This document shows, one piece after another, positions 42,709 to 60,504 of a stretch of 64,000 nucleotides of DNA. The position numbers and the translations under genes were made by a program. The stretch is taken from NCBI GenBank assembly GCA_963677925.2, contig CAXXYH010000003.1:1632001-1696000 (forward strand), in the 5' to 3' direction. The notes under the pieces are model-generated. The model saw nothing but the letters and a program-made list of their open reading frames with translations, did no database searches and was not told the origin of the DNA. Position 1 is the stretch's first letter. Each line of letters begins with the position of its first letter. This DNA comes from Spirochaetia bacterium. GTDB taxonomy: Bacteria; Spirochaetota; Spirochaetia; UBA9216.

Positions 42709-43704
42709 CTATAGACCAAGCTCTGCCGCAAGCTTCTTCAGCATGGCATGTGTATCATGCATGAATTGAACCGATTCTTCTGTTGTTCTTTCAATTACAT
42801 ACCCGCCGCGCTTTTCAATTGCTTCTTTTGATGCCGCATCAGTTGTACCAAAGCCGTCGAGAACTGTATTTATCCTGTCAACAAGTTCAGCAGACATTCC
42901 ATTTGGACCGTAAAGCATAAACTCGCCTTCCCACACAACATCGTACCCCTGTTCTACTGCAGTAGGGAACTGCGTAAAAGCGAAATCACGTTCGCGTCCG
43001 GTAATACCCAGAACTTTCATTTTACCTGCTTTTACATACTGATCTGCATTTCCCATACCTACATTACATATATCAATATGACCTCCGAGAAGTGCAGTAA
43101 TTTTTTCCGCCTCGCTGCCGGCATCTACCATCTTAAAAGTTGCTCCGGATTCCTGCTCAAAAATTGCCATAACAAAGTGAGATGTCAAGCCTGCAGCCGC
43201 TCCCCATATAATGTCCCCGGGACGAGACTTCGCATCTGCTACAAGGTCATCAAAAGTATTCCAAGGGGCATCCGCACTGACTACCAGGGCGTTATTTCCT
43301 GCGTTCACAACCGAAGAAATACAGGTAAAATCTGTATCAGGATCTTTATTGTACACACCGGTATAGCTTGAAATTGGAAAAGATGTATGGAAATAGTAAA
43401 GGGTAAGGCCATCGGGCTCAGAAGTCCGCACCTGCTCAGCTCCTACAGAACCGCCACCCTCGGTTACATTCATAACAGCACATGGGGTGCCTGTTATCCT
43501 CTGAACATAATCAGCAAAAATCCTTGCATGATAGTCGGCGAAACCACCTGCTCTTGATGAACAGATAATCGTAATTGGTCCAGACGGCCAATCTTCAGCT
43601 GTTACAGGGGCGGAAGTGGAACCAGATTCCTGCTGACCTCCTGCAAAGACTGCTGTACCAAAAACTGTAATAAGAATTACAGCTAAAATTAACAGCTTTT
43701 TCAT
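42709..43704 (-). CDS. tctC: tripartite tricarboxylate transporter substrate-binding protein TctC
   Basis: WPSGPITII....AGG..D..AR, NV.EGGG.VG, PDGLTL, ALLGGHID, PT..EQG. Confidence 0.9.
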   Translation of the reverse strand: MKKLLILAVILITVFGTAVFAGGQQESGSTSAPVTAEDWPSGPITIICSSRAGGFADYHARIFADYVQRITGTPCAVMNVTEGGGSVGAEQVRTSEPDGLTLYYFHTSFPISSYTGVYNKDPDTDFTCISSVVNAGNNALVVSADAPWNTFDDLVADAKSRPGDIIWGAAAGLTSHFVMAIFEQESGATFKMVDAGSEAEKITALLGGHIDICNVGMGNADQYVKAGKMKVLGITGRERDFAFTQFPTAVEQGYDVVWEGEFMLYGPNGMSAELVDRINTVLDGFGTTDAASKEAIEKRGGYVIERTTEESVQFMHDTHAMLKKLAAELGL

Positions 43705-43824
43705 AAACTCTCCTTTTGCTCTAAAGATATTTTAAAGTGAAATAATTATTCTTGATAATTATTCTTAATCACGATTATAATGTAGGCCTATTGATAAGTA
43801 AAATTAAATGTTTTTCACTACATA

Positions 43825-43839
43825 TTAAGTTTTACTTAA
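43825..43839. promoter_or_regulatory. LysR-type T-N11-A palindromic box
   Basis: TTAAG-TTTTA-CTTAA between the divergent tctC and lysR genes. Confidence 0.5.
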
Positions 43840-43860
43840 CATCAAGTAAGGGGAAAGTAT

Positions 43861-44811
43861 GTGGATATGACATTTTTAAAATATATAATCACAGTAGCCG
43901 AAGAAAAAAAACTCTCTAAAGCTTCTGAACGGCTGTTCATAACCTCATCAGCACTAAGCCAATGTATAAAGAAGCTTGAAGGAGAGCTTGGTATTCCGAT
44001 ATTTGAAAAGATAAATAATCAAACCTTCCACCTCACCGAAGGGGGACGAATATATGTTGAGGCGGCAAAAGAGATCCTTGATAAAAAAGAACATACTTAT
44101 CGAATACTTAAGGATGTACAACATGCAAACCGTGGAAACTTCACATTTGGTTGTTCACCAAAACGCGGTTTGGCAATGCTTTCCAATATCTATCCAAAAT
44201 TTTATAAGGCATTTCCAGATGTCAAAATCGATCTACAAGAAGCTAACCTGAATACTCTCAGGGATTCTGTCTTGAAAGGCTCTGTTGATATAGCTATCCT
44301 CACCCCGCTGAATGAAGAACATAAACAATTAAACCTTGAGCCTATAGATCAAGAGGAGGTGATACTAGCTATCCCCTATACTCACCCTCTTGCACATCTT
44401 GCTGGTAATAATGGAACTGGAACTATCCCTCTTGCTAATCTAAAATTATTCAAATCGGACAACTGGATGCTCGCAAATAAAAACTCCATGCACCGCAACC
44501 TTACAGACCAGCTCTTCCAACAAGCCAGCTTCGTTCCAGATAAAGTACTTTTGGAAACATCTACAACCGGGGTTCACCTCTCAGCTATCGAAGAAGGTAT
44601 TGCTGTCAGCCTTGTTCCAATGCCGCGTAATCCGGATGAAGTTAAGATAATCAAGCTGCACCTTGAACCTAGGCCATATAGAAAACTCTATGCCGCATAT
44701 CGGAAGAGCTATCTTTTGTCTAAAAACCAGCGGTACTTTATTGACCTAATGGCTGAGTTTTACCGTACTGCACGAAATCAAACCCTACCACCCCACAGGA
44801 CTGGTTGGTGA
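43861..44811 (+). CDS. LysR-family transcriptional regulator
   Basis: SKASERLFITSSALSQCIKKLEGELG..IFE...LTEGG HTH plus substrate-binding domain. Confidence 0.93.
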   Translation: MDMTFLKYIITVAEEKKLSKASERLFITSSALSQCIKKLEGELGIPIFEKINNQTFHLTEGGRIYVEAAKEILDKKEHTYRILKDVQHANRGNFTFGCSPKRGLAMLSNIYPKFYKAFPDVKIDLQEANLNTLRDSVLKGSVDIAILTPLNEEHKQLNLEPIDQEEVILAIPYTHPLAHLAGNNGTGTIPLANLKLFKSDNWMLANKNSMHRNLTDQLFQQASFVPDKVLLETSTTGVHLSAIEEGIAVSLVPMPRNPDEVKIIKLHLEPRPYRKLYAAYRKSYLLSKNQRYFIDLMAEFYRTARNQTLPPHRTGW

Positions 44812-45475: not shown

Positions 45476-46027
45476 CTATCTGCCCGGGCTGTAACTCAGA
45501 CATCCTGATGGACAGGCTTCTACGCATTTAAGGCATTTCGAACACGCAAAGGCCTCTCCGGGAATCTTTTTATCTTCTTTATATAGACTGAAAGTCTCAG
45601 ACTCAAGGGTAGACAGGTAGCAGGCATTATCGCAGACTCCGCAGCTTTTGCAAGAATCTCTGTCCAGTTTTATCCTGAACAATGAGAATCTGTTAAGAAA
45701 ACCTGAAACCCAGGCAATCGGACATCCCATTTTATGATACTGGTATGTCTGTATGAACTTATCTTCATCGGGAACTGATCCGGTCAGAAGTTCCTTGATA
45801 AATCCCATAGGGCAAATCCAGCGGCAGAAAACCTTTCCAAATATTATTCCTGCTAAAGCCCCGGCGCCTAGAACATACCACAGGCCGATATGCAGATAAA
45901 AGACTGCGGCAAACATCCCTGCCCCGGCAAGCAGCTGTATCCATCTCCTCTTTGATGTAAAAAATGAGGTGATTTGTTTTCCTGATTTCACTATGACTTC
46001 TCCCTTTGGTTTACAAAGAGGATACAT
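45476..46027 (-). CDS. membrane 4Fe-4S binding protein (NapH/YccM-like, short)
   Basis: FGKVFCRWICPMG, CKSCGVCDNAC, CSKCLKCVEACP; true start probably GTG 45991 after GGAGA. Confidence 0.82.
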   Translation of the reverse strand: MYPLCKPKGEVIVKSGKQITSFFTSKRRWIQLLAGAGMFAAVFYLHIGLWYVLGAGALAGIIFGKVFCRWICPMGFIKELLTGSVPDEDKFIQTYQYHKMGCPIAWVSGFLNRFSLFRIKLDRDSCKSCGVCDNACYLSTLESETFSLYKEDKKIPGEAFACSKCLKCVEACPSGCLSYSPGR

Positions 46028-46081: not shown

Positions 46082-46109
46082 AAAAAAAGACCGGCATCGG
46101 CTGCCGGCC
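46082..46109 (-). terminator. intrinsic terminator downstream of the DeoR sugar operon
   Basis: Minus strand GGCCGGCA-GCCGA-TGCCGGTC-TTTTTTT. Confidence 0.7.
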
Positions 46110-46267: not shown

Positions 46268-47683
46268 TTAGTACTCTCTGATTTCGAAGTTCTGAGCTAT
46301 CAGTTTCCGGCCTTCCTCGTATGAGGAAACTTCACCGGCTGATACAGCCTGAATCAGAATATTTCCGAGGGCTGTTGCTTCTACAGGCCCGGCAAGAACA
46401 GGGCGTTTGAGAGCCTCAGCCGTCCATGTGTTTATAAGATCATTCTGACAGCCTCCGCCGATAATGTTCAGCTGCTCTACCCTCTTTCCGGTAATCTCCT
46501 CAAGTTTTCCGACTGTTTTCGCATATTTGTCGGCAAGGTTTCTGAATACGCATGCGGCAACCTCACCGGGGTTTGAAGGAACATCAGTTCCGGCATCTCT
46601 GCAGTACTGAATTATTCTGTCCGGCATGCTTCCGTCTGTAAGGCTTGATTTTAAAAACAGCGGATCATCAAGATCCACAGGCCAGTCCGCTGTACGAGCC
46701 TTCTCTGCCAGGCTTACTATCTCACCCCAGCCGAGTTCGTTGCCGCTCTTGTCCCAGTCGGCCTTGCATTCCTGAATAACCCAGAGGCCCATAATATTCT
46801 TAAGGTAGGTAATAAGCCCCTCTCGGCCGCCTTCATTGGTAAAATTGTACTTGAAACTGAGATCATTGATGATAGGCTTCTCAAGCTCAACACCAAGCAG
46901 CGACCAGGTGCCCGAACTCAGGTATGCGGCGTTTCCGCTGCCGGTATACGGCATTGCCGCAACCGCAGATGCCGTATCGTGGCAGGCCGGAGCGGTCACA
47001 ACAACATCGGAAGGCGCACCTATTTCGGCAGCTTCCTCAGGCAGGAGCTTTCCTATTACCGCGCCCGGAAGGACAACATCGCTGAAAATCTCCGGTTTAA
47101 ACCCGGCTGCGGTAATCAGGCTTTCAGACCACTTGCGGGTTTCAGGATTAAGAAGCTGAGTCGTTGATGCCTCTGAAAACTCGTTGCTTATTACGCCTGT
47201 AAGCCAGTAGTTGAGCAGATCCGGTACGGTCAGAAAATGCCTTGCAGCGGCAACCGTTTCAGGAGATTTTCTACTGTGGGCCAGCAGCTGAAAAATGGTA
47301 TTGAGCTGCATGAACTGAATACCGGTTTCCTTGTATATATCCTCTTTGGGAACAAGCTTAAAAAACTCTTCCTCCATACCGTCAGTCCTGCTGTCGCGGT
47401 AGTGGTATGGGTTGGAGATGAGGTCTCCGTTTTTATCAAGCAGGGCATAATCAACACCCCAGGTATCAATTCCAATACTTTTTATCTGATTTCCGTATTT
47501 ATCAAAGGCTTCCTTAAGTCCCTTCTTGATGTCCGTAAACAGGGCAAGAAAATCCCAGTATATTGTATCTTTGATCCTGACAACACGGCTTGGAAACCTT
47601 GTCATGATCTCTATCCCGTAGAGATCACCGACAATCACCCTGCCGCTTGATGCCCCCAGGTCTACAGCTATAAACTTCCTCAT
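46268..47683 (-). CDS. rhaB: rhamnulokinase-like FGGY sugar kinase
   Basis: AVDLGASSGR, SIGIDTWGVDY, YRDSRT, HDTASAV, SSGTWSLLG, FTNEGG, KNIMGLW, GPVEATALGN. Confidence 0.82.
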   Translation of the reverse strand: MRKFIAVDLGASSGRVIVGDLYGIEIMTRFPSRVVRIKDTIYWDFLALFTDIKKGLKEAFDKYGNQIKSIGIDTWGVDYALLDKNGDLISNPYHYRDSRTDGMEEEFFKLVPKEDIYKETGIQFMQLNTIFQLLAHSRKSPETVAAARHFLTVPDLLNYWLTGVISNEFSEASTTQLLNPETRKWSESLITAAGFKPEIFSDVVLPGAVIGKLLPEEAAEIGAPSDVVVTAPACHDTASAVAAMPYTGSGNAAYLSSGTWSLLGVELEKPIINDLSFKYNFTNEGGREGLITYLKNIMGLWVIQECKADWDKSGNELGWGEIVSLAEKARTADWPVDLDDPLFLKSSLTDGSMPDRIIQYCRDAGTDVPSNPGEVAACVFRNLADKYAKTVGKLEEITGKRVEQLNIIGGGCQNDLINTWTAEALKRPVLAGPVEATALGNILIQAVSAGEVSSYEEGRKLIAQNFEIREY

Positions 47684-47698
47684 AAATCAACCGCTCCC

Positions 47699-48796
47699 TT
47701 ATTTTAACATTATCTGGCCGCCGGTTACCGGGAGGGCCTGTCCTGTTTCGTATTTCTGTTCTACAAGATAGAAAACAGCCTTTGACACATCAACAGGATT
47801 ACAGCCCCGGCCCATGGGAACCTTTGCCTCGTAGAATTCTTTTACATCCGCAATTGTCTTCGCACCAGGCACCTTTCCTGCGTTCAAATACTGAACAAAA
47901 AGTCCCCTTTCCGGATCCGACCAGAGAGGGCCTTCGAAGAAGTTCCCCGGACATATTGAGTTGACCTTGATATTGTCTGTTATCAGTTCCAGAGCAAAAC
48001 TCTGGGTAAGGCCGATTCCGCCGAACTTGCCGCCGGCATAGGCGCCGTTCTTGTTTGAACCTTCAAGCCCTGACTTTGAGTTTATCTGAATAACATCGGA
48101 GTAATAGTTTTTGCCGATTGATTCCGCACCCCGGTTCTGCTCAGCCATCAGGCGTGAGGCGAACTTGGTGCAGATGAAGTAGCCGGTGTAGTTTACCTTT
48201 GTCACAAACTCAAAATCTCCGAGATTCATCTCTTTAACGCTCCCGGCCTTAAGAACTCCGGCGTTGTTGATGAAAATATCAATTCCGCCCTTTTTCAGAG
48301 CAATGGTATTCATCATCTGTTCAACAGAAGCTTCATCAGCAACATTGACCTCGACGGCATCGCAGCATTCCCTGCCAATGGCCTTATTAGTCTGTGCGGC
48401 AAACTCCTGTGCACCCTTAAGGTTCATGTCGGCAACAAATACAAAGATATCCTTCTTTACCAGCTGTTCTACAATGCCTGCACCGAAACCCTGGGCGCCT
48501 CCGGTAACTACTGCGATCTTGCCTGCAAGGCCTGAAGGCCATCCGTCGCGCAGGGATGTGCTGATAGCAAAAGAACCCAGCCCGTCAACTGAAACAGCCT
48601 CAGGGACAGTATTATTGGCGGTAATATAGTCATTGTAGAGCTTACCGGGATTCTCAAAAAATGCGTCCGCATCCTTTACCGAAAGAACACCCGTTCCTGA
48701 TTTTACTTCCGGGCTGAAAGTAACAGCAGCTCCTGTTTCACCGTTATATGTAAGCCCGCGGATCAGCGGTGCTATAGCTTCTGCTTTTATGCTCAT
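47699..48796 (-). CDS. sorbitol-6-phosphate dehydrogenase-like SDR with about 90-aa N-terminal extension
   Basis: TGGAQGFG, NNAG, QINSKSG, YAGGKFGGIGLTQSFALEL, CPGN, TGQ...VTGGQ (SrlD/SorD-like). Confidence 0.82.
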   Translation of the reverse strand: MSIKAEAIAPLIRGLTYNGETGAAVTFSPEVKSGTGVLSVKDADAFFENPGKLYNDYITANNTVPEAVSVDGLGSFAISTSLRDGWPSGLAGKIAVVTGGAQGFGAGIVEQLVKKDIFVFVADMNLKGAQEFAAQTNKAIGRECCDAVEVNVADEASVEQMMNTIALKKGGIDIFINNAGVLKAGSVKEMNLGDFEFVTKVNYTGYFICTKFASRLMAEQNRGAESIGKNYYSDVIQINSKSGLEGSNKNGAYAGGKFGGIGLTQSFALELITDNIKVNSICPGNFFEGPLWSDPERGLFVQYLNAGKVPGAKTIADVKEFYEAKVPMGRGCNPVDVSKAVFYLVEQKYETGQALPVTGGQIMLK

Positions 48797-48797
48797 T

Positions 48798-50135
48798 TTA
48801 TGCTCCTATTAAATCGATTATATTTTCAGGATTAAAAAGATCCATCTTTTTTCCGGCCGCAGCATAGAACTCCATTCTTTCGGAAAGCGGCTTTGATGCG
48901 AATTCCCCTTCAGGATTGAATAGCGCATAAGATTCGTCGGCAGAGGCAAGATGCTCGTGAGCAATAAGAGTCCATGTTGCATCGATAAGATGTGTGAACT
49001 CGGGCTGAAGAATTTCAGGGCATCTGAAAACCTGTCTTGACGAGTTGATATCAACACCGCTGATCTGCATGAACTCATGATTATCGCAGAGAGCCTGTAC
49101 CCGAAGAAGCTGCTTAACAGTGTTTCTCGGCGGCATGTATGTTACAGCCTTGAAGCCTGTTTTTTTCAGTATTTCAAACAGTTCATCAAGATAATCATCT
49201 TCAAACTTTTCAGCCTTCTTGTCACCGGTAGGGCTTTCGGCAACATCGCCGAGGTAGGCATACGAAGGAATAGCATTAATACTGTTGGCAAATGCCACAA
49301 CCTTATCTGCGGCCGGACATTCAGCCTCATTAGGCTGGATAAAAAAAGACGGAACAAGATTGCTCTTTAGAATTCCCAGCAGATCATAAACATAGTGGGG
49401 ATTTTCCTGGTCGAGAAGGAAGCCTTTGATTTTATCAGTCAGCGGTATTCCCAGCTTATCAGCTACAAAATCGACAGTTCCCTGTCCTTTTCCGGCAGCT
49501 TCAATAATTTTGAGACTTAATGCATAAAGGATATGACGCTCGGTAACACCTCCGCCGTCTGCAGATTCGGAAATTGCAAGCACATCCTTCTCAAAATCCA
49601 GGGGTTCAAGAACTCCCTGAGGCAGGATGCTGTTGAGTTTTTCAACCTCCGCCCGGTTTCTGAGATTCCTCTCTTCCCTTATAGGCTTGATAAATTCCGC
49701 TACTTCCGCAAAGCGGCTGTGGGGAACGCCGTGAATACAGATGTATGCGCTGTTTATTGTGTCCGGGTTGTTAATCTTCCTGGTTTCAAGTGAAGTGCCT
49801 GAAAAGTTGACCCGAAGTTCAAATCCGGTTGTCGAACCGATGCCTATGGATTTACAGGCTTCAACCATCTCTGCGGCCGCTCCGATACTGTCATGATCAA
49901 CACTGCCGGCAGCCTTCAGCCCTGATGCCCAGGCCATGAATGCAGCTTTTGAGGGTGAGTAGGGACTGAATGAATAGATTGTATGAATATGATTATTCAC
50001 CTCATCGGTCTTTTCGTTTGCAAGCTTTCCGCTTTTAATCATATCCCCTATTGCAGAAGCAGCAGCCAGACGCTCGGTCCGGCTGCTGCTGTTGAGTTGC
50101 TCTAATAATACTTTTCCGGGATCGGTATTTATCAT
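48798..50135 (-). CDS. PHP-domain metallo-phosphoesterase-like protein
   Basis: [18 protein letters not shown] motifs of the PHP fold. Confidence 0.72.
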
Positions 50136-52591
50136 ACACCTTCCCTCTGGGATCTGAGGAGCTCTCCGTTGGTCTGAACAGATGAAGAGCTGTGACCTGA
50201 AAGCGGAATTATGTTTTCATCAATAGCATCGATGATCCACTTTGATGTCGGGAAGAAGTAGTCTTCCATCTCTGCCGGCGGTGTGATCCAGTTCTTTGAA
50301 CCGACAACTACCGGAGGAGCATCAAGGTAATCAAATGCAAGTCTGCTGATATTTGATGCAATGTTGTGGAGGTATGAACCTCTCTCGCTTGCGTCTGATG
50401 AAAGAACAACCTTACCGGTCTTCTTAACAGACTCGATGATCTTGTCATAGTTAAGCGGATTGATAAATCTGAGGTCGATAACCTCTGCACTCATTCCGTA
50501 TTTTTCCTGAAGCTCATCGGCAGCCTTGACTGCTTCATACAGTGTGGCACCGATAGTGATAATAGTTAAATCGCTTCCGGTTCTTCTGACTGCCGGTTCG
50601 CCTTCTTCAATTTCATAGTAGCCTTCAGGAACACCGGCTTTTTCAAACTCTTCTCCTACGCCGTAGAGTTTCTGGCTTTCAAAGAAGATAACAGGGTCTG
50701 TTCCGCTGAGTGCCAGGTTAAGCATACCCTTTGCGTCATAAGGAGTTGCGGGAAACATTGCCTTGAGTCCCGGAATGTGGGCTACAAGGGCCGACCAGTC
50801 CTGTGAGTGCTGTGCGCCGTACTTGTTTCCGACAGAAACGCGGAGGACAAGCGGCATTCTCAGCTCTCCGCCGGACATTGACTGCCACTTGGGCATCTGG
50901 TTGAAGACCTCGTCACCTGATCTTCCGAGGAAGTCGCAGTACATAAGTTCAACCATTGCACGTCCGCCGCTCATAGCGTAGCCTACTGCAGAACCGACTA
51001 TTGCACCCTCTGAGATGGGTGAATTGAACAGTCTGTGGTACGGAAGCGCTTCTGTAAGACCGCGGTATACGGCAAAGGCTCCGCCCCAGTCACGGTTTTC
51101 TTCACCGTATGCGACCAGTGTAGGGTCGGTATAGAAGCCGTGAACTGCTGCTTCAAAAAGCGCGTCACGGTACACAAACTGCTTTGATGCGGGAATCTTG
51201 TTTCCGGCTTCATCGAAGGCGTACCTGATCTTTTTCGCGTTAGCCTTTACTCTCGGGTTCTCTTCAAGAGGCATAAGAACTTCAGGCTCACGGTCATCTA
51301 GCTTTTCCATCTTTGTGTTTGAGAACATTACAGACTCTATGAACTTTCCGTCGACAAATCTTGAGATATTGTCGTCTATAGCAATCTTCATTGTGTTTGT
51401 TATTTTGCCGACAACCTTCTCTTTCAGGCTGTCTGAAGCCTTCTGATCAAAAACACCGTTTTCAATAAGGTACTTTTCAAAATTCTGAATTACATCAGCA
51501 TCCCTGAAAGCATCCATCTCTTCCTTGCTTCTGTAGGATGACGCATCAGAAGGTGAATGACCTGAGAGCCTGTAGGTAATTGTATCCATAAGAACAGGGC
51601 CCTTGCCTTCAAGCAGGAGTTTTTTCTTTCTGGACATTGCATCTGCAACTGCAAGAGGGTTGAATCCGTCTACACGTTCTGCATGCATATTGTCCGGGTT
51701 GACACCGGCGCCGATTCTCGCAGGCTCCTTGTAACCCATGGTTTCACCGTTTGTCTGGCCGCCCATCGCGTAGAAGTTATTGAAAATATTGAGCATGAAG
51801 GGAGGTGCACCGCCCAGGTCCTTGTCCCAGAGATTATTGTACTGGTCCATCGCGGCCAGCATCAGGCCTTCCCATACAGGGCCGCAGCCCATTGAGCCGT
51901 CGCCTATGTTGGCAATTACGATACCGGGCTTACGGTTGATTCTCTTGTAAAGGGCTGAACCGACGCTGATGTCGGCACTTCCGCCTACGATTGCGTTATT
52001 GGGCATGCTGCCGAAGGGGGCAAAGAAGGTGTGCATTGAACCGCCGAGGCCTCTGTTGAAACCGGGGGCTCTTGCGAAAATCTCTGCGAGTGCTCCGTAG
52101 AGAACAAAGTTCTCTGCAAGGTCTTTTACGTTATCGCCCTTGTGGTGCTTATCAACGATGCCTAAAGCTTCACCGTTCATGAAGCCTTCCATTGTTGATT
52201 TCAGGCTTGCTTCATCAAGCTTCTTGATAGCGGAAAAACACTTTGCAAGTATTTCACCGTGGCTTCGGTGTGAACCGAAGATAAAGTCGTCTGTATCAAG
52301 GACGGCGCACTGACCGACCGATGCGGATTCCTGACCGGCTGAAAGGTGTGCAGGGCCCTTGTGGTTGTATTCAAGACCGTTGTAGGAACCTTCCTTCTTG
52401 ATGAGATCGAGCATGGTTTCAAACTCGCGGATAATAAGCATGTCGTAGTACATGCCGATAAGGCCGTCTTTTCCGTACAGCTTAAGTTCTTTCTTGATAT
52501 CAGGCTTATACTGGTTAACCGGTATATCCTTTATTTTGATGGTGCCGGGTTTTCTTACCTCTTCCGGCCTTATTTCAAGTATTTTAGGCAT
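50132..52591 (-). CDS. fused E1 alpha/beta subunit of a 2-oxoacid/acetoin dehydrogenase-type complex
   Basis: HLSAGQE, HRSHG, GGSMH, GDG...[11 protein letters not shown] (alpha); [30 protein letters not shown] (beta). Confidence 0.9.
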
Positions 52592-52620
52592 TTGATAACT
52601 CCTTATAACTTAGCACCGGA

Positions 52621-53946
52621 TTAAAGCATCCAGCATACATCTTTGATAATTTCCGACACACTCGGGTGCGGGAAGATAATTTCTCTCATATCCTTTGTAC
52701 GAAGTTCCGCTTCAATTGCTGCAGCGGCTGTACCTATCATCTCTGAACAGACGGCGCCGATCATGTGAACGCCGAGAATCATGTCGGTATCGGCATCGGC
52801 TATAACCTTGCACATACCGGCTTCCTTTCCGTGTTCGGCGAGAAAGCGTCCGTTTGCCCTCATCTGCATGGCGGCAGATTTCACGTTGTATCCGGCGGCC
52901 TTTGCATCCTTTTCTGTGTATCCGCATCCGGCAACTTCAGGCAGTGAGTAGACAGCCCAGGGAACGGCGTTGTATCTCATTATTCCGCCTGCTCCGAACA
53001 TGTTCATCACGGCAACCTCACCCATTCTTGATGCCGAGTGGGCAAGCAGTGATTTTCCGGTAACATCGCCTACAGCATAAATGCCCGGGATATTGGTCCG
53101 CATGTGCTCGTCAACGGCAACGCCCTTCGGGCTGTAATCTATTCCAAGATTTTCGAAACCGCCTGTATTCGGGCGTCTTCCTACCGACATCAGGACAAGA
53201 TCAGCTTTTACGCTTTCCTTCTTTCCGTCCTTTTCATATTCAACGCCGTCGGCAGTAATAGCAGTAACCTTTGATGAAAGCAGGAAGTTAACCGCGCCCA
53301 TTTCCTTTCGCAGGAGCTTGGCGGTTTCTCCGTCCATCATCGGACATATCTCATCCATCATCTCAATAACGCTTACTTCAACGCCTACATTACTGAAGAA
53401 GGAAGCAAACTCAACGCCGATAACACCGCCGCCGATAACCGCCAGCTTTTTCGGCAGTTCTTCAAGCGCCAGAATTTCACGGTTTGTAACTACATTCGGT
53501 CCGTCAAATCCGGGAATAGGAGGAACGAAGGCAGAAGACCCGGTAGCGATAATCAGGTTCTCACCCTCGTATACAGTTTCGCCGACCTTCACCTTTTTCC
53601 CTCCGGGAAAAACGGCCTCACCGTAAACAACTTCAACCTTGCCCTGCTTCATCAGAAAGGCAATACCCTTGCGGAGGCTGTCAATGGTTTCATTCTTCCA
53701 GGCCATTGCCTCGGAAAAATTAAAGACCGGATTATCAAAATGAACGCCGAACTTTGCGGCTTCCTTTCCGTATGTAAAATGCTTTGCGGCATTCAGAAGA
53801 CTCTTTGTAGGAATACAGCCGTGGTTTGTGCAGACACCGCCAAGGTTCTCCTTTTCAACAAGCAGAACCTTCTTTCCCATATGGCCGGCACGCTCAGCGG
53901 CAACATAGCCTCCGGGACCGGCTCCAACAACTATCAAATCAAACAT
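52621..53946 (-). CDS. lpdA: dihydrolipoyl dehydrogenase (E3)
   Basis: GAGPGGYVAA, GGVCTNHGCIPTK, GGGVIGVE, LAH.A, HPSVSE. Confidence 0.95.
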   Translation of the reverse strand: MFDLIVVGAGPGGYVAAERAGHMGKKVLLVEKENLGGVCTNHGCIPTKSLLNAAKHFTYGKEAAKFGVHFDNPVFNFSEAMAWKNETIDSLRKGIAFLMKQGKVEVVYGEAVFPGGKKVKVGETVYEGENLIIATGSSAFVPPIPGFDGPNVVTNREILALEELPKKLAVIGGGVIGVEFASFFSNVGVEVSVIEMMDEICPMMDGETAKLLRKEMGAVNFLLSSKVTAITADGVEYEKDGKKESVKADLVLMSVGRRPNTGGFENLGIDYSPKGVAVDEHMRTNIPGIYAVGDVTGKSLLAHSASRMGEVAVMNMFGAGGIMRYNAVPWAVYSLPEVAGCGYTEKDAKAAGYNVKSAAMQMRANGRFLAEHGKEAGMCKVIADADTDMILGVHMIGAVCSEMIGTAAAAIEAELRTKDMREIIFPHPSVSEIIKDVCWML

Positions 53947-53966
53947 AATTCAAACTCCAGTAATTT

Positions 53967-55310
53967 CTACAGTGCGAGGTAGATCCCGATATTCTCAACC
54001 GCGGTCCTGATATCGGCACAGAACTTTGATGCCGGAGCACCGTCTGCAGCCTGATGATCATAGGTCAGTGAGAAGCCGATGTGATCACGGTACTCAACTC
54101 CGTTCGCTGTTCTCACAGGCTTAAGCTGGGTTGAGCAGACACCGAGTATTCCTATCTCCGGCGGATTAATAATCGGAGTAAAGCTGTCAATTCCAAAAGC
54201 GCCTACATTGCTGAGAGTGAAGGTGGCTCCTGTAAGTTCATCGGGCTGGGCCTTTCCTTCACGGCAGGCTGCAATAAGTCTTGCCGCTTCTGCGGAAAGC
54301 TCCTTCAGGCTGAGGCTGTCGGCATTCTTTATTACCGGAACAAGCAGACCCTTGGGAGTATCACATGCGAAACCGAGATGGACACTGTCAAAATATCTCA
54401 TTGTGTCGCCGAGCCAGTGGCAGTTGAACTCAGGATGAAGCTTCAGAACCCTAGAAGCGGCAAACATTACGATATCGTTTATGCTGACCTTTCCAAGACC
54501 GAGTTCTTCAGGAGAGTTCTTGAACTTTGCACGGTAGGCAAGAAGTTCGGTAGCATCTGCTGTAAAATTGTGTGTGAGCTGGGCTGTCATTGAAAGCGAT
54601 TCCATCATCCTCGCGGCGGTAATCTTTCTTACACCCTTAACCTTTTCATCCCTGAAAGCGCCCGGGAACGGCAGGGCTGCCGATGCGGAAGCTGCAGTAC
54701 CAGCTGCCGTAGAAGCAGCTGGTGCAGAGGAAAGGTCCTGAAGTCTGACCCTTCCGCCGATTCCAGTACCCTCTGCGGGTGCAGTAAGCCCCTGCTCTAT
54801 TGCAGCAGCAACAGCTGCAGGAGTAAGGGGTTCCTTTCCGGCAAGAGCACCTAAAACATCACGCTCAATTACACGTCCTCCGGGTCCGCTTCCTGCAAGG
54901 CCTGAAGCATCAAAGCCCTTTCCGGCAGCGAGGTTTCTTGCCCTGGGAGATACGAAGCTGTCTCCGCCGGTTGAGTTCACCGCAGGTGCAGCCTGGGCTG
55001 CCGCAGGTGCGGATGCGGAAGCACCGTCACCTGAGGCTGCAAACTCGGCTTCAAAGCTGCTTATATCTTCACCGGGTTCACCGATAACCGCCATCATTTT
55101 CTGTACAGGCACTTCGGTATCCGGTCCGTAAAAAATCTTTAGAATGGTACCTTCAGCAGTAGATTCAACCTCTATGGTTGCCTTGTCGGTCTCTGCCTCG
55201 CAGACTACATCACCGACATTAACCCGGTCGCCTTCCTTCTTCATCCATTCAAGAATGAGACAGGACTCTACCGAGTTACCCTGCTTTGGCATCAATAACG
55301 CTGTTGCCAT
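53967..55310 (-). CDS. dihydrolipoamide acyltransferase (E2)
   Basis: Lipoyl domain ETDKA, SPRAR...GSGPGGRV..RDV, TFTLSNVG, PIINPP, TYDHQAADG. Confidence 0.92.
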   Translation of the reverse strand: MATALLMPKQGNSVESCLILEWMKKEGDRVNVGDVVCEAETDKATIEVESTAEGTILKIFYGPDTEVPVQKMMAVIGEPGEDISSFEAEFAASGDGASASAPAAAQAAPAVNSTGGDSFVSPRARNLAAGKGFDASGLAGSGPGGRVIERDVLGALAGKEPLTPAAVAAAIEQGLTAPAEGTGIGGRVRLQDLSSAPAASTAAGTAASASAALPFPGAFRDEKVKGVRKITAARMMESLSMTAQLTHNFTADATELLAYRAKFKNSPEELGLGKVSINDIVMFAASRVLKLHPEFNCHWLGDTMRYFDSVHLGFACDTPKGLLVPVIKNADSLSLKELSAEAARLIAACREGKAQPDELTGATFTLSNVGAFGIDSFTPIINPPEIGILGVCSTQLKPVRTANGVEYRDHIGFSLTYDHQAADGAPASKFCADIRTAVENIGIYLAL

Positions 55311-55427
55311 ATTTCTCTCCTAATAATACATCAATCATTCTGCCGTGACGGCAGGTTCAAAAATGAAGTTTTAAAGCATAGCTTTCAAACTTCTGAAAAT
55401 CGAAAATACACGGATGTGTTCTCGATT

Positions 55428-56180
55428 TTAAACGATCTTCAGGTTAAGTCCTTTTTCTTCCATTTCAGCTCTGACCGTCTGGTCCAATCCCTCATCCGAA
55501 ATAATCAGGTCTGTACTCTCAAGCGGCAGGATTTTCACAAATCCCACCTTGTTGTATTTTCCCGAGTCAGCAAGAAGAACGGTCTTTTCCGACTGTCTGA
55601 CCATCTTTTTAATAATTTCGGAATTCTCAACAAGCTGGGTGGTCATCCCGCTTTGATAAGAGAATCCTTCCGTTCCGATAAAAGCAATTTTCACATGGTA
55701 GGCATCCAGCTGTCTGATTGGCTCCGGGCCCACAACAGCTTCAGCCATCGGACGGAATTCTCCGCCTACAAGCGTAAGGTTTATTGAAGGGTTCATCCTT
55801 GCATACGGAAGAAGCAGGGTTGAATTTGTTACTATTCTGATATCTCTTTTACCCAGGAGATAATTCCCGATATACGCAGTTGTCGTACCTGCACATATCA
55901 TAATGGAATCGCCGTCTTCAACCATTGAAGCAGCTTCCTTTGCAATCCTTCTTTTTACATCAGTCATATCCCTCTGACGCTCAAGAATCTCCGGATGCAT
56001 TGCCGGAACAGCCCCGCCCCGGGTTTTCACGAGCACGCCTTTTTCAACCAGACTGTTAAAATCGCTTCTGACAGTCACGGTTGAAACATTCAGCCGCTCG
56101 CTTATCTCCGAGACGCTGACCCTGCCCTCTTCAGACAGGATCTCAACTATCCGCCTTTCTCTTTCGGTTAAACTATGCAT
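55428..56180 (-). CDS. DeoR/GlpR-family transcriptional regulator
   Basis: VSTVTVRSDF..L...G...KTRGGA, KRRIAKEAA, AGTTT, LADSGK. Confidence 0.93.
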   Translation of the reverse strand: MHSLTERERRIVEILSEEGRVSVSEISERLNVSTVTVRSDFNSLVEKGVLVKTRGGAVPAMHPEILERQRDMTDVKRRIAKEAASMVEDGDSIMICAGTTTAYIGNYLLGKRDIRIVTNSTLLLPYARMNPSINLTLVGGEFRPMAEAVVGPEPIRQLDAYHVKIAFIGTEGFSYQSGMTTQLVENSEIIKKMVRQSEKTVLLADSGKYNKVGFVKILPLESTDLIISDEGLDQTVRAEMEEKGLNLKIV

Positions 56181-56189
56181 GCCTTACCG

Positions 56190-57452
56190 CTAAATTGAGG
56201 TACTGTGAGCAAGAAGATATTTTTCAGCTTCAAGGTTCCACAAGCCGTTATGTTTCTTTACGAGCTTATCAAGTTCGGCAAAAACAGGGTCTGACTTGCC
56301 GAGTTCTTCAAAATCGGCAATTGCTGTAAGCGGCATGCTCTTCTGAACATAAATCAGTTTTTTGCCGCCGGGAATCTTGGGCAGATTGAGTGTTGTCTCG
56401 ACAACTGAATCAAGTCCGCCGATATGGGTTATCATCGATGCCGGATTAAGCTCTCCGCGTCCCATCATCTCAAGAGATTCACGCATATCGGCTGTGTTTC
56501 CGCCGCTTGTTCCTACAAGGTGATGGAACTCATAATGTACATTGTAAAAATTGAGTTCAGCTTTGAACTCTGTATTTGAAGGTCCTGCAAAGAAGTTCAG
56601 ACATCCGTCTTTTGTAAGGATTGAGTCTCCCTGTTCAATAAGAGGTTTCACAGGAGCCATAACCAGTACATCGTCGTAGCCTGCTCCGCCTGTCTGATCC
56701 ATAAGAAGCTTAACAGGATCTGATGTATCCTTTGTATTCAGATAGATGAGCTTTACACCGTTTTTGGCAGCCTCTTCGACGCTGTAGACTTCGGCTGCCC
56801 GTTTAAGTCGGGTGTCATCAATATCAGTGACAACAAGAAGCCCGGGTTTAACCGGATTATGTATGGCGTAATCTATTGCGCCAAGTCCCATCGGACCTAC
56901 ACCGGCGATAATTGCGAGATTTCCGCCTTCCTTGATACCCATGTTATGGATATAAGTGCCCTGGGGAATGTGATACATGGCATGATATGTCCCGACAATA
57001 CAGGAAACAGGTTCACTCAGTGATCCCATGAAGTAGGCATCTCCCTCATAAGGAAGAAGACAGTCCATTTCCATTACTTCGTTGGGAATCAGTATATTTG
57101 TCGCATCACCGCCGATGTAATGGAATGAATAGCCCGGAGCATCAAGGCTTCCCTTATAATTTAGTGCCGGCTGAATTGAAAACTTCTGGCCTGGTTTGAA
57201 CTTATCAGCCCATTTTGAACCTACTTCAAGAATCTCTCCGCAGAATTCATGGCCGATCATTGTAGGATTCTGCGCAACATCATCGGGAACCCTTTTATGT
57301 TCCGGCCCCTGGATAGCAGCCTTATATGAAGACATACAGATACTGTCTGAAATTACTGTTGCGAGTATTTCATCGTCTTTCATTGCCGGAAGCTCAAACT
57401 CCTCGAGCCTGAGGTCGTTCTTTCCGTATATTCGTACAGCTTTGGTTTTCAT
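56190..57452 (-). CDS. L-sorbose-1-phosphate reductase-like zinc-binding (MDR) dehydrogenase
   Basis: MKTKAVRIYGKNDLRLEEF, DSICMSSYKA..QG..HKRVP, GHE, DGCLNFFAGP, NFYNVHY, GTSGG (SorE-like). Confidence 0.85.
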   Translation of the reverse strand: MKTKAVRIYGKNDLRLEEFELPAMKDDEILATVISDSICMSSYKAAIQGPEHKRVPDDVAQNPTMIGHEFCGEILEVGSKWADKFKPGQKFSIQPALNYKGSLDAPGYSFHYIGGDATNILIPNEVMEMDCLLPYEGDAYFMGSLSEPVSCIVGTYHAMYHIPQGTYIHNMGIKEGGNLAIIAGVGPMGLGAIDYAIHNPVKPGLLVVTDIDDTRLKRAAEVYSVEEAAKNGVKLIYLNTKDTSDPVKLLMDQTGGAGYDDVLVMAPVKPLIEQGDSILTKDGCLNFFAGPSNTEFKAELNFYNVHYEFHHLVGTSGGNTADMRESLEMMGRGELNPASMITHIGGLDSVVETTLNLPKIPGGKKLIYVQKSMPLTAIADFEELGKSDPVFAELDKLVKKHNGLWNLEAEKYLLAHSTSI

Positions 57453-57484
57453 AATTCCTCCTTAAGGTTTCTAAAAACACCATA

Positions 57485-57546
57485 TTTACTTTCTATTTAC
57501 TTTCTTTTACCTTTCTATAATATTTACATTGGGTTTACATTGTCAA
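57485..57546 (-). promoter_or_regulatory. promoter of the DeoR operon overlapped by about 11-bp periodic direct repeats (candidate DeoR operator)
   Basis: Minus strand TTGACA (57541-57546)-N18-TATTAT; TTTAC repeats at 57485, 57496, 57506, 57523, 57534. Confidence 0.55.
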
Positions 57547-57626: not shown

Positions 57627-58055
57627 ATGCACAGACAACACGAATTCAAATGCAAAGCCCCCGTTCAGATACGTTTTGGGGATATTGACGGCCAGGGCCA
57701 TGTAAACAACGCTGTATACCAGAATTATTATGATATCGGGAGGGTAAAATACCTTTCCGAAATGCTTGGTGAACCATATATGCCCGGCGGCAAATCCCTG
57801 GTGGTGGCTTCGGTAAAAACTGATTTTCTTGCACCGGTTTTCCTGCATGATGATATAATAGTAGAATCTGCGGTGATCAAGATCGGCAATAAATCACTCA
57901 CAATGCTGCAGAGAATCAGGGAAAATCATACCGGTGAGATAAAATCCGACTGCACGACAATTTTTGCCGGCTACGATTATGACCGGGCTGAAACTATTGT
58001 AATACCGGACAGATACCGAAACGCAATAAAAGAGTACCAGAACAAGGAAGTGTAA
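57627..58055 (+). CDS. acyl-CoA thioesterase (4HBT/YbgC hot-dog family)
   Basis: RFGDIDGQGHVNNAVY..Y.D.GR. Confidence 0.9.
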   Translation: MHRQHEFKCKAPVQIRFGDIDGQGHVNNAVYQNYYDIGRVKYLSEMLGEPYMPGGKSLVVASVKTDFLAPVFLHDDIIVESAVIKIGNKSLTMLQRIRENHTGEIKSDCTTIFAGYDYDRAETIVIPDRYRNAIKEYQNKEV

Positions 58056-58056
58056 A

Positions 58057-59775
58057 ATGTTTGAAAAGGCAATGTTTGAAGCTGAATATTCCGCTGACGG
58101 AGTCAGACATACGGTTGTAATGCCGTTTCAGGCTCTTGTCAACTCAGAAGCTGTAGGCTTCAACCTGAGCCATTCAAATGACGGGAAACGGGAAAGCATA
58201 AAGGTATCAGTCATTCCCAGAGCGGAAATAAAGATTCACCGGCTTGAGCTGGTTGCTGAGTATGAATTCCATCAGGATGAAAAAATATTCCTCAACGGCT
58301 ACCAGAGCTGGACTGACAGTGCAGAACACGGCCTTCAGGACAGACAGAAGGGAATTCCCCTTTTAGGAAGAATAGTAAACCCCTACTTTCAGCTGCGGAA
58401 ATACGGAGACTATGATTTCATCCGTCAACCCTCTGCTCCCGGCGAGTTTCACGGTTTTTCGTATGGATATATTAAAAAGCAGGGCTCAAACCAGATTACT
58501 CTTCTTGGTTCTCTGAATGAACAGAACGCCTTCACTGTAATACGTTTTACAGCTGCTGCAAAAGAAATCCGTGTGAGCATGGAATGCAACAACCTTGCCA
58601 CCGACAAACCGGTAACAGCACTTCAACTCCTCTGTGTAACTGATGAGGAAAATAAGGCTTTCGATCAGTGGTTTTCAGCAATGGAGCTGCCGGCGGTAAA
58701 AACTCCCGAAATTACCGGATGGACCTCATGGTACGACCACTATGAAAATATCAGCAGTGACATAATCAATCAGAATCTCGAAGCCTTTACCAACACGAAT
58801 CTCCCTATAGAAATATTCCAGATAGATGACGGTTTTCAGACCGCAACAGGAGACTGGCTGAGCATTGACAAAGCAAAATTCCCCGAAGGGCTTGCCCCGG
58901 TGGTAGACCGTATTCATAAAAGCGGGTATAAGGCCGGATTATGGCTCGCTCCCTTTTCAGCCCAGAAGAACTCAGAGCTTGCAAAACAGCACCCGGAATG
59001 GCTCCTGAGGGATGGCAAAGGGAAGCCGGTTCAGGCAGGCATCAACTGGGGCGGTTTTTACGCTCTTGATATATACAATCAGGAGTTCAGGGACCATCTT
59101 GCTGAAGTTTTCAATACAGTTCTGAATGAGTGGGGCTTTGATATGGTCAAGCTTGACTTCCTCTACGGAGCCTGCCTTGCGCCGGAAACTCAGGGAAGAA
59201 CAAGAGGCGCGGTTATGCATGACGGTATGAAACTTCTGCGGGAACTCACCGGCAGTAAGCTGATTCTCGGCTGCGGAGTTCCGCTTGCTTCGGCATTCGG
59301 ATTGGTCGACTACTGCAGAATCGGCTGCGATGTCAGCCTTGACTGGGACGACGGGTTCAGGGGCAGCCAGATTCACCGGGAGAGACCCTCAACACTGAAC
59401 TCACTTGCAAATGCAATAGGCCGGAGGCATCTTGACGGCAGGGCCTTCAGAAACGATCCGGATGTATTCATATTAAGAGACAGAAATACAAAACTAAGCG
59501 GCGCCGAAAAAGAAACCCTGTTCAGAATCAACGCAGTTACCGGTGCTCTTGTTTTTACATCCGACAATGTTGCGGAATACAGTGACACAAGAAAGAAGAT
59601 GTTTGAATCTCTGAAGGCAAAAAAGAAAATTGAATCTGTCGAGTCTGACAGCGGAACCTATACGATCAGCTATACTGAGGGTGGAAAAGAACATATTCTA
59701 TTCGCAAACCTCTCAGATAAGACCATTTTCTACAGCGGTCTCGAGGTTCCCGCTCACTCCTCAGTTATTTTGTAG
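58057..59775 (+). CDS. GH36-family alpha-galactosidase
   Basis: NGYQSW, GWTSWY, FQIDDGFQ, KFPEG, GLWLAPF, VKLDFLY, LGCG, CRIGCD, NDPD. Confidence 0.88.
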   Translation: MFEKAMFEAEYSADGVRHTVVMPFQALVNSEAVGFNLSHSNDGKRESIKVSVIPRAEIKIHRLELVAEYEFHQDEKIFLNGYQSWTDSAEHGLQDRQKGIPLLGRIVNPYFQLRKYGDYDFIRQPSAPGEFHGFSYGYIKKQGSNQITLLGSLNEQNAFTVIRFTAAAKEIRVSMECNNLATDKPVTALQLLCVTDEENKAFDQWFSAMELPAVKTPEITGWTSWYDHYENISSDIINQNLEAFTNTNLPIEIFQIDDGFQTATGDWLSIDKAKFPEGLAPVVDRIHKSGYKAGLWLAPFSAQKNSELAKQHPEWLLRDGKGKPVQAGINWGGFYALDIYNQEFRDHLAEVFNTVLNEWGFDMVKLDFLYGACLAPETQGRTRGAVMHDGMKLLRELTGSKLILGCGVPLASAFGLVDYCRIGCDVSLDWDDGFRGSQIHRERPSTLNSLANAIGRRHLDGRAFRNDPDVFILRDRNTKLSGAEKETLFRINAVTGALVFTSDNVAEYSDTRKKMFESLKAKKKIESVESDSGTYTISYTEGGKEHILFANLSDKTIFYSGLEVPAHSSVIL

Positions 59776-59781
59776 GTAATT

Positions 59782-60504
59782 ATGGAAGTAACCTTTATAG
59801 GATCCGGAGATGCATTCGGAAGCGGAGGACGGCTGCAGCCCTGCATCATGGTAAAAAATGGAGAGCATTGCTTCACTTTCGATTTCGGGCTGTCTGCACT
59901 TATAGGCCTGAAACAGCAGCAGCTCTCTCCCAATGCTGTAGACACGATAATTCTTTCGCATCTGCATGGAGATCATTGCGGAGGAATCCCGTTTCTTCTG
60001 ATGGATGCGATGCTTGGCGCAAAACGGGAAGCTCCTCTGAGAATTTTGGGTCCTGAAGGGACCGAACATCACCTCAGCAAAATGCATGAAATACTTTTCC
60101 CCGGAAGCAGTGTCATGACTCCGAAATTCAGTGTTGACTATATTGAACTCAGTCCCGGTGATTCAATCCGCCAGGGTGATTTAACAATAACTGCAATAGA
60201 AGCAATGCATACATTAGAAACAAAGCCTCTTGCGACCAGGGTCGAAAGCAACGGGAAAAGTATTGTATATACCGGTGACGGCGCATGTACTGAAGAGCTT
60301 GTAAATCTGACGGCAGGAGCTGATCTTCTTATCGCAGAATCATATTTCTTTGATAAGCCGGTTAAATGGCACCTGAACTATCCGGATATATCGCTGCTGA
60401 AAGCAAAAAAAACTGTTTTAACACACATGAGCGATAATATGCTGAGACAAAAAGACAATATCCCGGAATTGTGCGCATATGACGGCATGAAAATAAAAAT
60501 ATAG
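59782..60504 (+). CDS. MBL-fold metallo-hydrolase (RNase Z/phosphodiesterase-like)
   Basis: GSGDAFGSGGR, SHLHGDHCGG, YTGD, LTH. Confidence 0.85.
   Translation: MEVTFIGSGDAFGSGGRLQPCIMVKNGEHCFTFDFGLSALIGLKQQQLSPNAVDTIILSHLHGDHCGGIPFLLMDAMLGAKREAPLRILGPEGTEHHLSKMHEILFPGSSVMTPKFSVDYIELSPGDSIRQGDLTITAIEAMHTLETKPLATRVESNGKSIVYTGDGACTEELVNLTAGADLLIAESYFFDKPVKWHLNYPDISLLKAKKTVLTHMSDNMLRQKDNIPELCAYDGMKIKI

Follow-up and report, generated by a model that had tools for sequence, protein, structure and literature searches.

A conserved spirochaetal gene cluster with a fused-E1 dehydrogenase complex and its possible role in aldolase-independent L-rhamnose and L-fucose catabolism

A cluster of eight genes from a Spirochaetia bacterium (GTDB lineage Spirochaetota; Spirochaetia; UBA9216) combines enzymes related to those of sugar phosphate metabolism with an E1/E2/E3 (E1E2E3) complex of the 2-oxoacid dehydrogenase type. 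We tentatively propose that it encodes the lower steps, common to both sugars, of a breakdown of L-rhamnose and L-fucose without an aldolase, in which the complex would cleave a 1-deoxyketose-6-phosphate to acetyl-coenzyme A (acetyl-CoA) and a tetrose-4-phosphate; we rate this reading somewhat short of an even chance. The window analyzed here is the whole stretch of 64,000 nucleotides (nt) at positions 1,632,001 to 1,696,000 of contig CAXXYH010000003.1 (GenBank assembly GCA_963677925.2), and the cluster spans positions 46268-57452 of that window, with all eight genes on the minus strand and in one direction (Table 1). They encode a SorE-like medium-chain dehydrogenase/reductase (MDR), a DeoR-family regulator, E2, E3, an E1 with its alpha and beta parts fused, a PHP-fold protein, a short-chain dehydrogenase/reductase (SDR), and an FGGY kinase. 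A first-pass annotation of the window had described a sugar-catabolic operon with a built-in, atypical E1E2E3 complex, and such an operon, conserved among relatives, is what we found. It had also suggested an L-ketose as the substrate of the kinase and an acyl-CoA such as glycolyl-CoA as the product of cleavage, and on both points our analysis leads elsewhere.

RESULTS

The fused E1 differs from canonical pyruvate dehydrogenase

The grouping of the fused E1 was judged by hidden Markov model cut-offs and pairwise identities. The protein scores 141, 97, and 98 bits on the Pfam domains E1_dh, Transket_pyr, and Transketolase_C. Its alpha part gives 169 bits against a pyruvate dehydrogenase (PDH) cut-off of 394, and its beta part gives 229 against 321, so that both fail (TIGR03182 and NF006667). 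The same genome encodes two more E1 sets, both split, one of which passes the PDH cut-offs with 449 and 490 bits. Since the genome already has a canonical PDH, the fused-E1 complex is predicted to be something else, and by these scores the fused E1 is no canonical PDH, which agrees with the way the first-pass annotation had set it apart. Compared with E1 proteins of solved structure, the beta part scores 199 bits and the alpha part only 50 to 67 bits. A TPP (thiamine pyrophosphate) motif, GDG...NIFNN, is present, with an insertion that makes its spacer longer than in the usual form; the E2 carries ETDKAT and DHQAADG and the E3 carries CTNHGC, and we take these E1, E2, and E3 motifs to be catalytic. 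The E2 consists of lipoyl, E3-binding, and catalytic acyltransferase domains and falls under every NCBIfam equivalog cut-off. It is not of the AcoC type, as its catalytic domain is a classical 2-oxoacid_dh domain and the AcoC-type model NF011457 matches its lipoyl end only, at 79 bits against 307. In the second split, PDH-like E1 set of the same genome, the E1 alpha (G000:C3:1583367-1584172, locus L002) is distributed over two open frames of 239 and about 87 amino acids (aa), which may be a frameshift or an assembly error.

The nearest relatives of the fused E1 in a plasmid collection are fused E1 proteins on the alphaproteobacterial plasmids pRL8 (L184), pAt15955 (L185), and pSM30-1 (L186), which are 52 to 54% identical to it; split E1 proteins in that collection reach at most 34% identity. 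On all three plasmids a 78-aa lipoyl protein and an alpha/beta-hydrolase together match the AcoC-type E2 (NF011457, 153 to 159 bits). The surrounding genes encode a sugar-binding regulator, an ABC transporter, and ketose kinase, psicose-epimerase-like, or arabinitol-dehydrogenase-like proteins, with lipA present in pAt15955. This sugar-linked, acetoin-type system appears to be uncharacterized.

The cluster is conserved across Spirochaetota

Gene neighborhoods were compared in an E1-centered sample of 80 loci from genome contigs, nearly all of them from Spirochaetota, and in a PHP-centered sample of 80 metagenome loci. The counts below include only loci with enough sequence, and a match covers at least 40% of the query above a set identity threshold. 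Seventy-eight of the 80 genome loci encode an E1 that is 64 to 97% identical to the one in the window; for L019 and L020 the figure is 54%. Directly 3' of the E1 gene stands that of PHP in 59 of 68 loci. Of 52 loci, 45 have PHP, SDR, and MDR genes together and 35 have the kinase gene as well, so that the linkage of E1 to sorE-like, srlD-like, and PHP genes seen in the first pass is kept across relatives. E2 and E3 genes are upstream in 55 of 59 loci, and deoR is upstream of the E2 gene in 47 of 56. Usually the genes run DeoR-E2-E3-E1-PHP-SDR-MDR-kinase; the MDR gene comes first in the window and after the SDR gene in most relatives. The PHP-centered metagenome loci have an E1 gene directly upstream in 31 of 49 cases and an SDR gene next in 46 of 54. 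The PHP gene is translationally coupled to that of E1, and PHP is the most constant neighbor of the SDR. Cultured isolates with the cluster are Pleomorphochaeta sp. DL1XJH-081, Treponema sp. OMZ 840, Treponema sp. TIM-1, and Sphaerochaeta sp. S2. The module is widespread: the E1 and PHP queries each drew more than 7,800 protein matches with E values no higher than 0.001, although many of those to E1 may be ordinary E1 proteins. The two loci of 54% identity, from Hydrogenedentota (L019, 6104-8734) and Nitrospirales (L020, 5865-8402), hold lone fused E1 genes that follow rplI, dnaB, and a gene of the dihydrodipicolinate synthase (DHDPS) family, and no E2, E3, or sugar genes are present in either locus.

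Genes for lipoylation adjoin the cluster in several relatives (Table 1). LipB and LipA are encoded beside it in genome G264, and LplA is encoded beside it in loci L135 and L151 and in a genus, here called the fucose-type genus, in which fucI also stands beside the cluster. The E1E2E3 complex may be a main, or even the sole, lipoylated enzyme in these anaerobes.

Genomic links point to L-rhamnose and L-fucose

No isomerase gene is present in the window. Elsewhere in the same genome, on another contig, an operon encodes AraC, RhaA, and an RhaE-type class II aldolase-family protein and has no kinase gene, and this rhaA set adjoins genes for a rhamnose-type binding protein and an ABC transporter. 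The genome also has a lacI-fucI pair near an L-rhamnose mutarotase (rhaM) gene, again without a kinase. The kinase within the cluster aligns end to end with the RhaB model TIGR02627 and is the only strong rhamnulokinase homolog of the genome, the next protein scoring 74 bits. Treponema-type clusters carry a different FGGY kinase. In six relatives (L025, L029, L030, L032, L038, and L098) rhaA and the RhaE-like gene directly follow the cluster, and fucI lies within 8 of the 80 loci. The fucose-type genus, represented by three species, has fucU, an ABC transporter, lacI, and fucI divergent from a DeoR-E2-E3-E1-PHP-SDR-kinase-MDR cluster, with a lipoate ligase gene adjoining.

A sample of 301 genomes of the phylum gave a parallel pattern. 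The PHP protein was found in 13 of them, RhaA in 26, and FucI in 53. All 13 genomes with PHP have RhaA (9 genomes) and/or FucI (9 genomes), genome G077 being counted through fragmented matches only, and the 288 genomes that lack PHP include 17 with RhaA and 44 with FucI. This co-occurrence is given as a pattern, with no statistic, because related genomes are not independent. Because RhaA, FucI, and their transporters are linked to the cluster and the sole rhamnulokinase homolog lies inside it, the substrates are probably the 6-deoxyhexoses L-rhamnose and L-fucose, and not an L-sorbose-like ketose. About 8 kb upstream of the rhaA operon, positions 437-2509 of L090 hold genes for an IolD homolog (TIGR04377, 964 bits), KduI/IolB, an SDR, a TRAP transporter, and IclR; this set is a separate inositol- or uronate-type cluster.

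Aldolase genes in cluster-bearing genomes

Family searches of the window found no PTS (phosphotransferase system), aldolase, or transketolase gene in the cluster or its flanks. The first-pass statement to that effect stands for this region and does not extend to the genome, where the RhaE-like gene lies beside rhaA, nor to some relatives, where such a gene is fused to that of the SDR. The class II aldolase family PF00596 had no match in any of the three genomes of the fucose-type genus that carry the cluster (completeness 99, 99, and 94%) and matched in 10 of the 12 other cluster-bearing genomes, the two without it being 81% and 51% complete. As far as these genome sequences indicate, fucose catabolism through the cluster in that genus cannot use a known fuculose-phosphate aldolase.

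In genome G078 (L093, G078:C104, 8030-9514) a gene for a C-terminal transketolase half and one for a hexapeptide-repeat transferase lie directly upstream of genes for an RhaE-SDR fusion and a PHP protein, at a contig end. This is the only case seen with a transketolase in the usual place of E1E2E3. A transketolase as a regular alternative to the complex was rejected, since the same query gave this one case and none in the 80 metagenome loci.

Assignments of the reductase, the SDR, and the PHP protein

The MDR is 52% identical to Klebsiella pneumoniae SorE over residues 3 to 420, its full length, and 54% identical to Escherichia coli YggP. That SorE is encoded in a genuine sor operon, with a sorC-like regulator, an SDR, PTS components IIA to IID, and sorE. 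An independent feature search placed the MDR next to a feature cluster that bears the name L-sorbose-1-phosphate reductase. By homology it is a probable ketose-1-phosphate reductase, and the first-pass label "SorE-like" was apt. The analogy that had been drawn to the SorE/SorD pair holds for this enzyme. The SDR is only 27% identical to the SorD of the Klebsiella sor operon. The SDR is closer to SrlD, the closest solved relative being SrlD 5o3z at 152 bits and the next scoring 97 bits. It carries a 90-aa N-terminal extension, in which an R-G motif and one proline are the sole invariants among 20 sequences. The idea that this extension is a remnant of an RhaE aldolase was rejected, as it has no significant alignment to the aldolase half of an RhaE-SDR fusion and no NCBIfam hit. 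A second SorE-like paralog, 54% identical to the window MDR, is encoded elsewhere in the genome (G000:C3:483633-484889; L183:7631-8890) among PTS genes for EIIC-IIB, EIIA, a PfkB kinase, and enzyme I; that cluster has the look of a sorbose-type counterpart to the reductase step, fed by a PTS.

The 445-aa protein encoded next to E1 has no Pfam match, PF02811 being below threshold for it and recorded for many of its homologs. Its AlphaFold2 model has a mean confidence (pLDDT) of 93 and in Foldseek matches the TrpH/YciV-type PHP phosphoesterases 3o0f, 2yb1, and 9etk, with E values of 3e-10 to 5e-8 and target TM (template modeling) scores of 0.70 to 0.72 and with about 150 mostly helical residues uncovered. 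On this model the protein has a PHP fold, in line with the name it had been given in the first pass. Residues H49, H51, D80, H81, E106, H201, D362, and H393 are invariant in 28 PHP sequences. Also invariant in the family is D362-I-N364, presumably in the place of the usual PHP motif D-x-H. An identity as an isomerase of the xylose isomerase or RhaA type was rejected: an L-rhamnose isomerase structure ranked only 43rd, with an E value of 0.13. Our guess is that the PHP protein acts on a phosphorylated intermediate or on the four-carbon product, as a phosphohydrolase/phosphatase or as a metal-dependent isomerase.

Proposed pathway

In the proposed pathway each enzyme is assumed to act as its nearest characterized relative does. 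RhaA or FucI, encoded elsewhere in the genome, would make L-rhamnulose or L-fuculose, which the cluster kinase would convert to the deoxyketose-1-phosphate. The SorE-like reductase would reduce C2 to give a 6-deoxyhexitol-1-phosphate, and the SrlD-like SDR would oxidize C5, the carbon next to the methyl group, to give a 1-deoxy-2-ketohexose-6-phosphate, a methyl-ketone acyloin. With stereochemistry worked out on paper, and if the reductase has the facial selectivity of SorE, this product would be 1-deoxy-D-tagatose-6-phosphate from fucose and 1-deoxy-D-sorbose-6-phosphate from rhamnose. The TPP-dependent E1 would then cleave the C2-C3 bond as acetoin dehydrogenase cleaves acetoin, the acetyl group passing to the lipoyl-E2 and on to CoA and E3 making NADH. 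A tetrose-4-phosphate would be released, D-threose-4-phosphate given the same facial selectivity, and it would be the same for both sugars because the center at which they differ becomes the aldehyde carbon. Since a 6-deoxy substrate and a SorE/SrlD-type shift would lead to a methyl ketone, acetyl-CoA would be expected as the acyl product, not glycolyl-CoA. A shift of the carbonyl would serve no purpose unless the methyl end were to leave as acetyl. Outside the phylum, the scheme draws support from the three alphaproteobacterial plasmids, where relatives of the fused E1 accompany an AcoC-like E2 and sugar genes. The DeoR-family regulator probably responds to a sugar phosphate.

Layout of the locus and its neighbors

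All eight genes of the first-pass description are present and co-directional, with spacers, from the MDR gene to the kinase gene, of 9, 117, 20, and 29 nt, a 4-nt overlap, and 1 and 15 nt. The gap of 117 nt follows deoR, and the overlap is that of the E1 stop with the start of the PHP gene. The description of the genes as mostly abutting holds, since the spacers are 1 to 29 nt except for the one of 117 nt. The single promoter and terminator that had been proposed have their counterparts in a promoter-like and a terminator-like site flanking the genes; both are consensus matches only, and the promoter-like scan found 22 sites against 14.2 expected from shuffled sequences.

Table 1. Features of the cluster and related positions; coordinates are those of the window unless a locus is named
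Feature	Position	Strand	Assignment or evidence
SorE/YggP-family Zn-dependent MDR reductase	56190-57452	-	420 aa; Pfam ADH_N + ADH_zinc_N
DeoR-family regulator	55428-56180	-	Pfam HTH_DeoR + DeoRC
E2 dihydrolipoamide acyltransferase	53967-55310	-	Pfam Biotin_lipoyl, E3_binding, 2-oxoacid_dh
E3 dihydrolipoyl dehydrogenase	52621-53946	-	TIGR01350, 489 bits (cut-off 409)
Fused E1 alpha-beta, TPP-dependent	50132-52591	-	819 aa; Pfam E1_dh, Transket_pyr, Transketolase_C
PHP-fold metal-dependent hydrolase-like protein	48798-50135	-	445 aa; AlphaFold model + Foldseek
SDR, closest to sorbitol-6-phosphate dehydrogenase	47699-48796	-	365 aa; NCBIfam PRK12384, 223 bits
FGGY kinase, rhamnulokinase-like	46268-47683	-	NCBIfam TIGR02627, 463 bits
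Promoter-like site, TTGACA-18-TATTAT, 11/12	57517-57546	-	Upstream of MDR gene; consensus match only
Terminator-like hairpin + T-run	46089-46109	-	After kinase gene; consensus match only
Lipoylation genes in relatives	L091 (G264:C10) 8325-9915; L097 39-1046		

Several neighboring genes fall outside the conserved set. Positions 40640-44811 hold a minus-strand operon for the tripartite tricarboxylate transporter TctC-TctB-TctA, with a divergent LysR gene at 43861-44811; this operon is not kept beside the cluster in relatives. Directly 3' of the hairpin, on the same strand, is a gene for a 183-aa 4Fe-4S ferredoxin-like protein (45476-46027), which recurs only in L009. Divergent from the cluster promoter, at 57627-62075, are genes for a 4HBT-type thioesterase, a melibiase/GH31-like glycosidase, a metallo-beta-lactamase-fold protein, and an alkaline phosphatase. 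This set likewise recurs only in L009, from a 97%-identical genome, and the metallo-beta-lactamase gene is undetected even there. An acyl-CoA thioesterase adjoining an acyl-CoA-forming complex is suggestive; the thioesterase (57627-58055) was dropped as a candidate pathway member, as it recurs only in this 97%-identical locus.

DISCUSSION

Weighing the proposed pathway against its alternatives

Several findings weigh against the proposed pathway. The assignment of its substrates draws on homology, gene order, and co-occurrence, and the scores of two of its enzymes fall short of family cut-offs: the SDR gives 223 bits against 307 on PRK12384 (SrlD), its best family match, and the kinase gives 463 against 528 on the RhaB model. 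The aldolase-free genomes count as a single independent case because all are from one genus. D-Threose-4-phosphate is no central metabolite, and the model gives no account of its further conversion; neither does it assign a role to the PHP protein. The parts of the cluster are also separable, since in 6 of 52 loci DeoR-E2-E3-E1 is accompanied by neither PHP nor the sugar genes, and a PHP-SDR pair with no E1 nearby is found in many loci from termite guts. To these is added the RhaE-like protein, to which the model gives no firm role. Its gene lies beside rhaA in the same genome and adjoins the cluster in 10 of 80 loci; an RhaE-SDR fusion of 650 to 660 aa occupies the SDR slot in G264, G244, G078, L101, L118, and L119. 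Two roles are conceivable for the RhaE-like protein, that of a classical aldolase working in parallel and that of an epimerase adapting the stereoisomer that comes from rhamnose. The chemistry of the published RhaEW enzyme (PMC3870299) fits the classical aldolase route: rhamnulose-1-phosphate and NAD+ yield dihydroxyacetone phosphate (DHAP) and L-lactate, and neither product forms without NAD+.

An extended aldolase route built on this chemistry is one alternative, and we consider it unlikely. The RhaE-like protein would split the ketose-1-phosphate to DHAP and L-lactaldehyde, the SDR, acting like RhaW, and the MDR would carry the latter through lactate or methylglyoxal to pyruvate, and E1E2E3 would be a sugar-induced PDH. 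The position of the RhaE-like gene and the fusions speak for it, the window SDR being 59% identical to the SDR half of one fusion and the separate RhaE-like protein of the same genome 37% identical to its aldolase half. In NCBIfam, the E1 alpha and beta parts and E2 also come closest to PDH models, and since fucose and rhamnose both yield lactaldehyde, one module for both sugars would be explained. Lactate dehydrogenase genes are moreover found in the rha regulons of some bacteria (PMC3870299). Several observations run counter to this route. No class II aldolase gene was found in the three cluster genomes of one genus, which have fucI beside the cluster, the MDR belongs to the SorE family (52% identity) and is of no known lactate or lactaldehyde dehydrogenase kind, and the fused E1 fails the PDH cut-offs that another E1 of the genome passes. 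On the RhaEW model TIGR02632, with its cut-off of 568 bits, the fusions reach 213 bits and the window SDR, which has no aldolase domain, 131, and both score better on sorbitol-6-phosphate dehydrogenase (236 bits for the fusions). The PHP protein would go unexplained here too.

It is improbable, in our estimate, that, along the lines of the first-pass reading, the E1 acts in the manner of a transketolase on a ketose or ketose phosphate whose C1-C2 ketol is either free or phosphorylated. The two-carbon unit would then be oxidized to glycolyl-CoA, or to a thioester of phosphoglycolate from which the PHP protein may remove the phosphate. Such a reaction would suit the transketolase-like fold of E1 and would give a PHP phosphoesterase a natural role. 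The alphaproteobacterial E1 relatives adjoin a xylulokinase (463 bits against a cut-off of 380), which could mean donors of the xylulose-5-phosphate type, but these relatives pair with an acetoin-type E2. The split transketolase half beside RhaE-SDR and PHP in G078 would also fit, but that neighbor is a single case, with no other in the 80 metagenome loci. Glycolyl-CoA formation would leave the SorE- and SrlD-like enzymes, whose known relatives use sugar phosphates, with nonphosphorylated four-carbon fragments or with no role; there is no conserved gene for glycolyl-CoA use, and acetyl is the simpler outcome of a 6-deoxy carbonyl shift that gives a methyl ketone. That the module serves another ketose or polyol, such as an L-sorbose-like sugar or a hexitol, with rhamnose and fucose genes merely co-located as sugar operons, strikes us as very improbable. 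It would accord with the closeness of the MDR to SorE and of the SDR to SrlD, with the 6 of 52 loci that lack PHP, several of them standing beside other sugar genes such as those for iron-containing alcohol dehydrogenase, DeoC/LacD aldolase, and ABC transporters, and with the arabinofuranosidase genes that adjoin PHP-SDR pairs from termite guts. The presence of RhaA and/or FucI in 13 of 13 PHP genomes, against 17 and 44 of the 288 others, stands opposed to it, as do the sole rhamnulokinase homolog in the cluster of a genome whose rhaA operon has no kinase and the repeated direct adjacency to rhaA, fucI, fucU, and the rhamnose-binding protein gene.

Comparison with known systems

The proposed pathway resembles the enterobacterial L-sorbose pathway (SorE and SorD) in that reduction of a ketose-1-phosphate to a hexitol phosphate is followed by oxidation at the other end, so that the carbonyl is moved. 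It differs in that the cluster has an FGGY kinase and no PTS and in that its SDR is closer to SrlD than to SorD; the L-sorbose pathway also ends in fructose-6-phosphate, whereas the product of the shift would here be a 1-deoxyketose phosphate that is then cleaved. Acetoin dehydrogenase (AcoA, AcoB, AcoC, and AcoL) provides the model for that cleavage, as its TPP-E1, lipoyl-E2, and E3 convert a methyl-ketone acyloin to acetyl-CoA and an aldehyde. Unlike that enzyme, the cluster E1 is fused, the E2 has a 2-oxoacid_dh domain and not the alpha/beta-hydrolase of AcoC, and it is a sugar phosphate on which the complex is proposed to act. Enzymes that use TPP to break or form the C2-C3 bond in ketose phosphates are themselves well known from transketolase-dependent sugar routes and from 1-deoxy-D-xylulose-5-phosphate (DXP) synthase; in contrast to these, the two-carbon unit would here be oxidized onto lipoamide and leave as an acyl-CoA instead of being transferred to an aldose. 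Entry would be as in FucIKA and RhaBAD, by an isomerase (FucI or RhaA) and then an FGGY kinase, whereas the class II aldolase step and the lactaldehyde/1,2-propanediol branch of those pathways appear to be bypassed. The RhaEW rhamnose pathway shares a sorbitol-6-phosphate-dehydrogenase-related SDR and an RhaE-type class II aldolase-family domain with the systems described here, but as published it includes neither E1E2E3 nor a PHP protein or SorE-like reductase (Rodionova et al. 2013, PMC3870299).

Biological significance

The first-pass annotation knew of no characterized pathway with this gene set, and a search of the full-text literature, which did not cover author manuscripts and subscription papers, likewise found no published description of it. 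The component families are known; as far as is known, the module and a lipoamide complex acting on a sugar phosphate are new, and we know of no earlier case of a lipoamide-dependent complex with such a substrate. It is possible, if somewhat doubtful on present sequence comparisons, that a 2-oxoacid-dehydrogenase-type complex has been recruited for sugar phosphate cleavage, giving a route without aldolase, lactaldehyde, or 1,2-propanediol in which all six carbons are recovered, and that the same E1 family, with an acetoin-type E2 in Alphaproteobacteria, marks a wider and so far unrecognized class of oxidative ketose-phosphate lyases.

The glycans of algae, plants, and mucins contain fucose and rhamnose as major sugars. 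In the textbook account anaerobes break both down by aldol cleavage, and half of the carbon is then lost as 1,2-propanediol. If the proposed pathway is true, the predicted fermentation products and ATP yields would change, with about 3.3 instead of 2 ATP per rhamnose by rough arithmetic, and less propanediol would be available for cross-feeding in sediments, guts, and termite hindguts. The E1/transketolase superfamily would gain a new reaction type, and anaerobic spirochaetes and, judging by the spread of homologs, other phyla would have an aldolase-free route for fucose and rhamnose.

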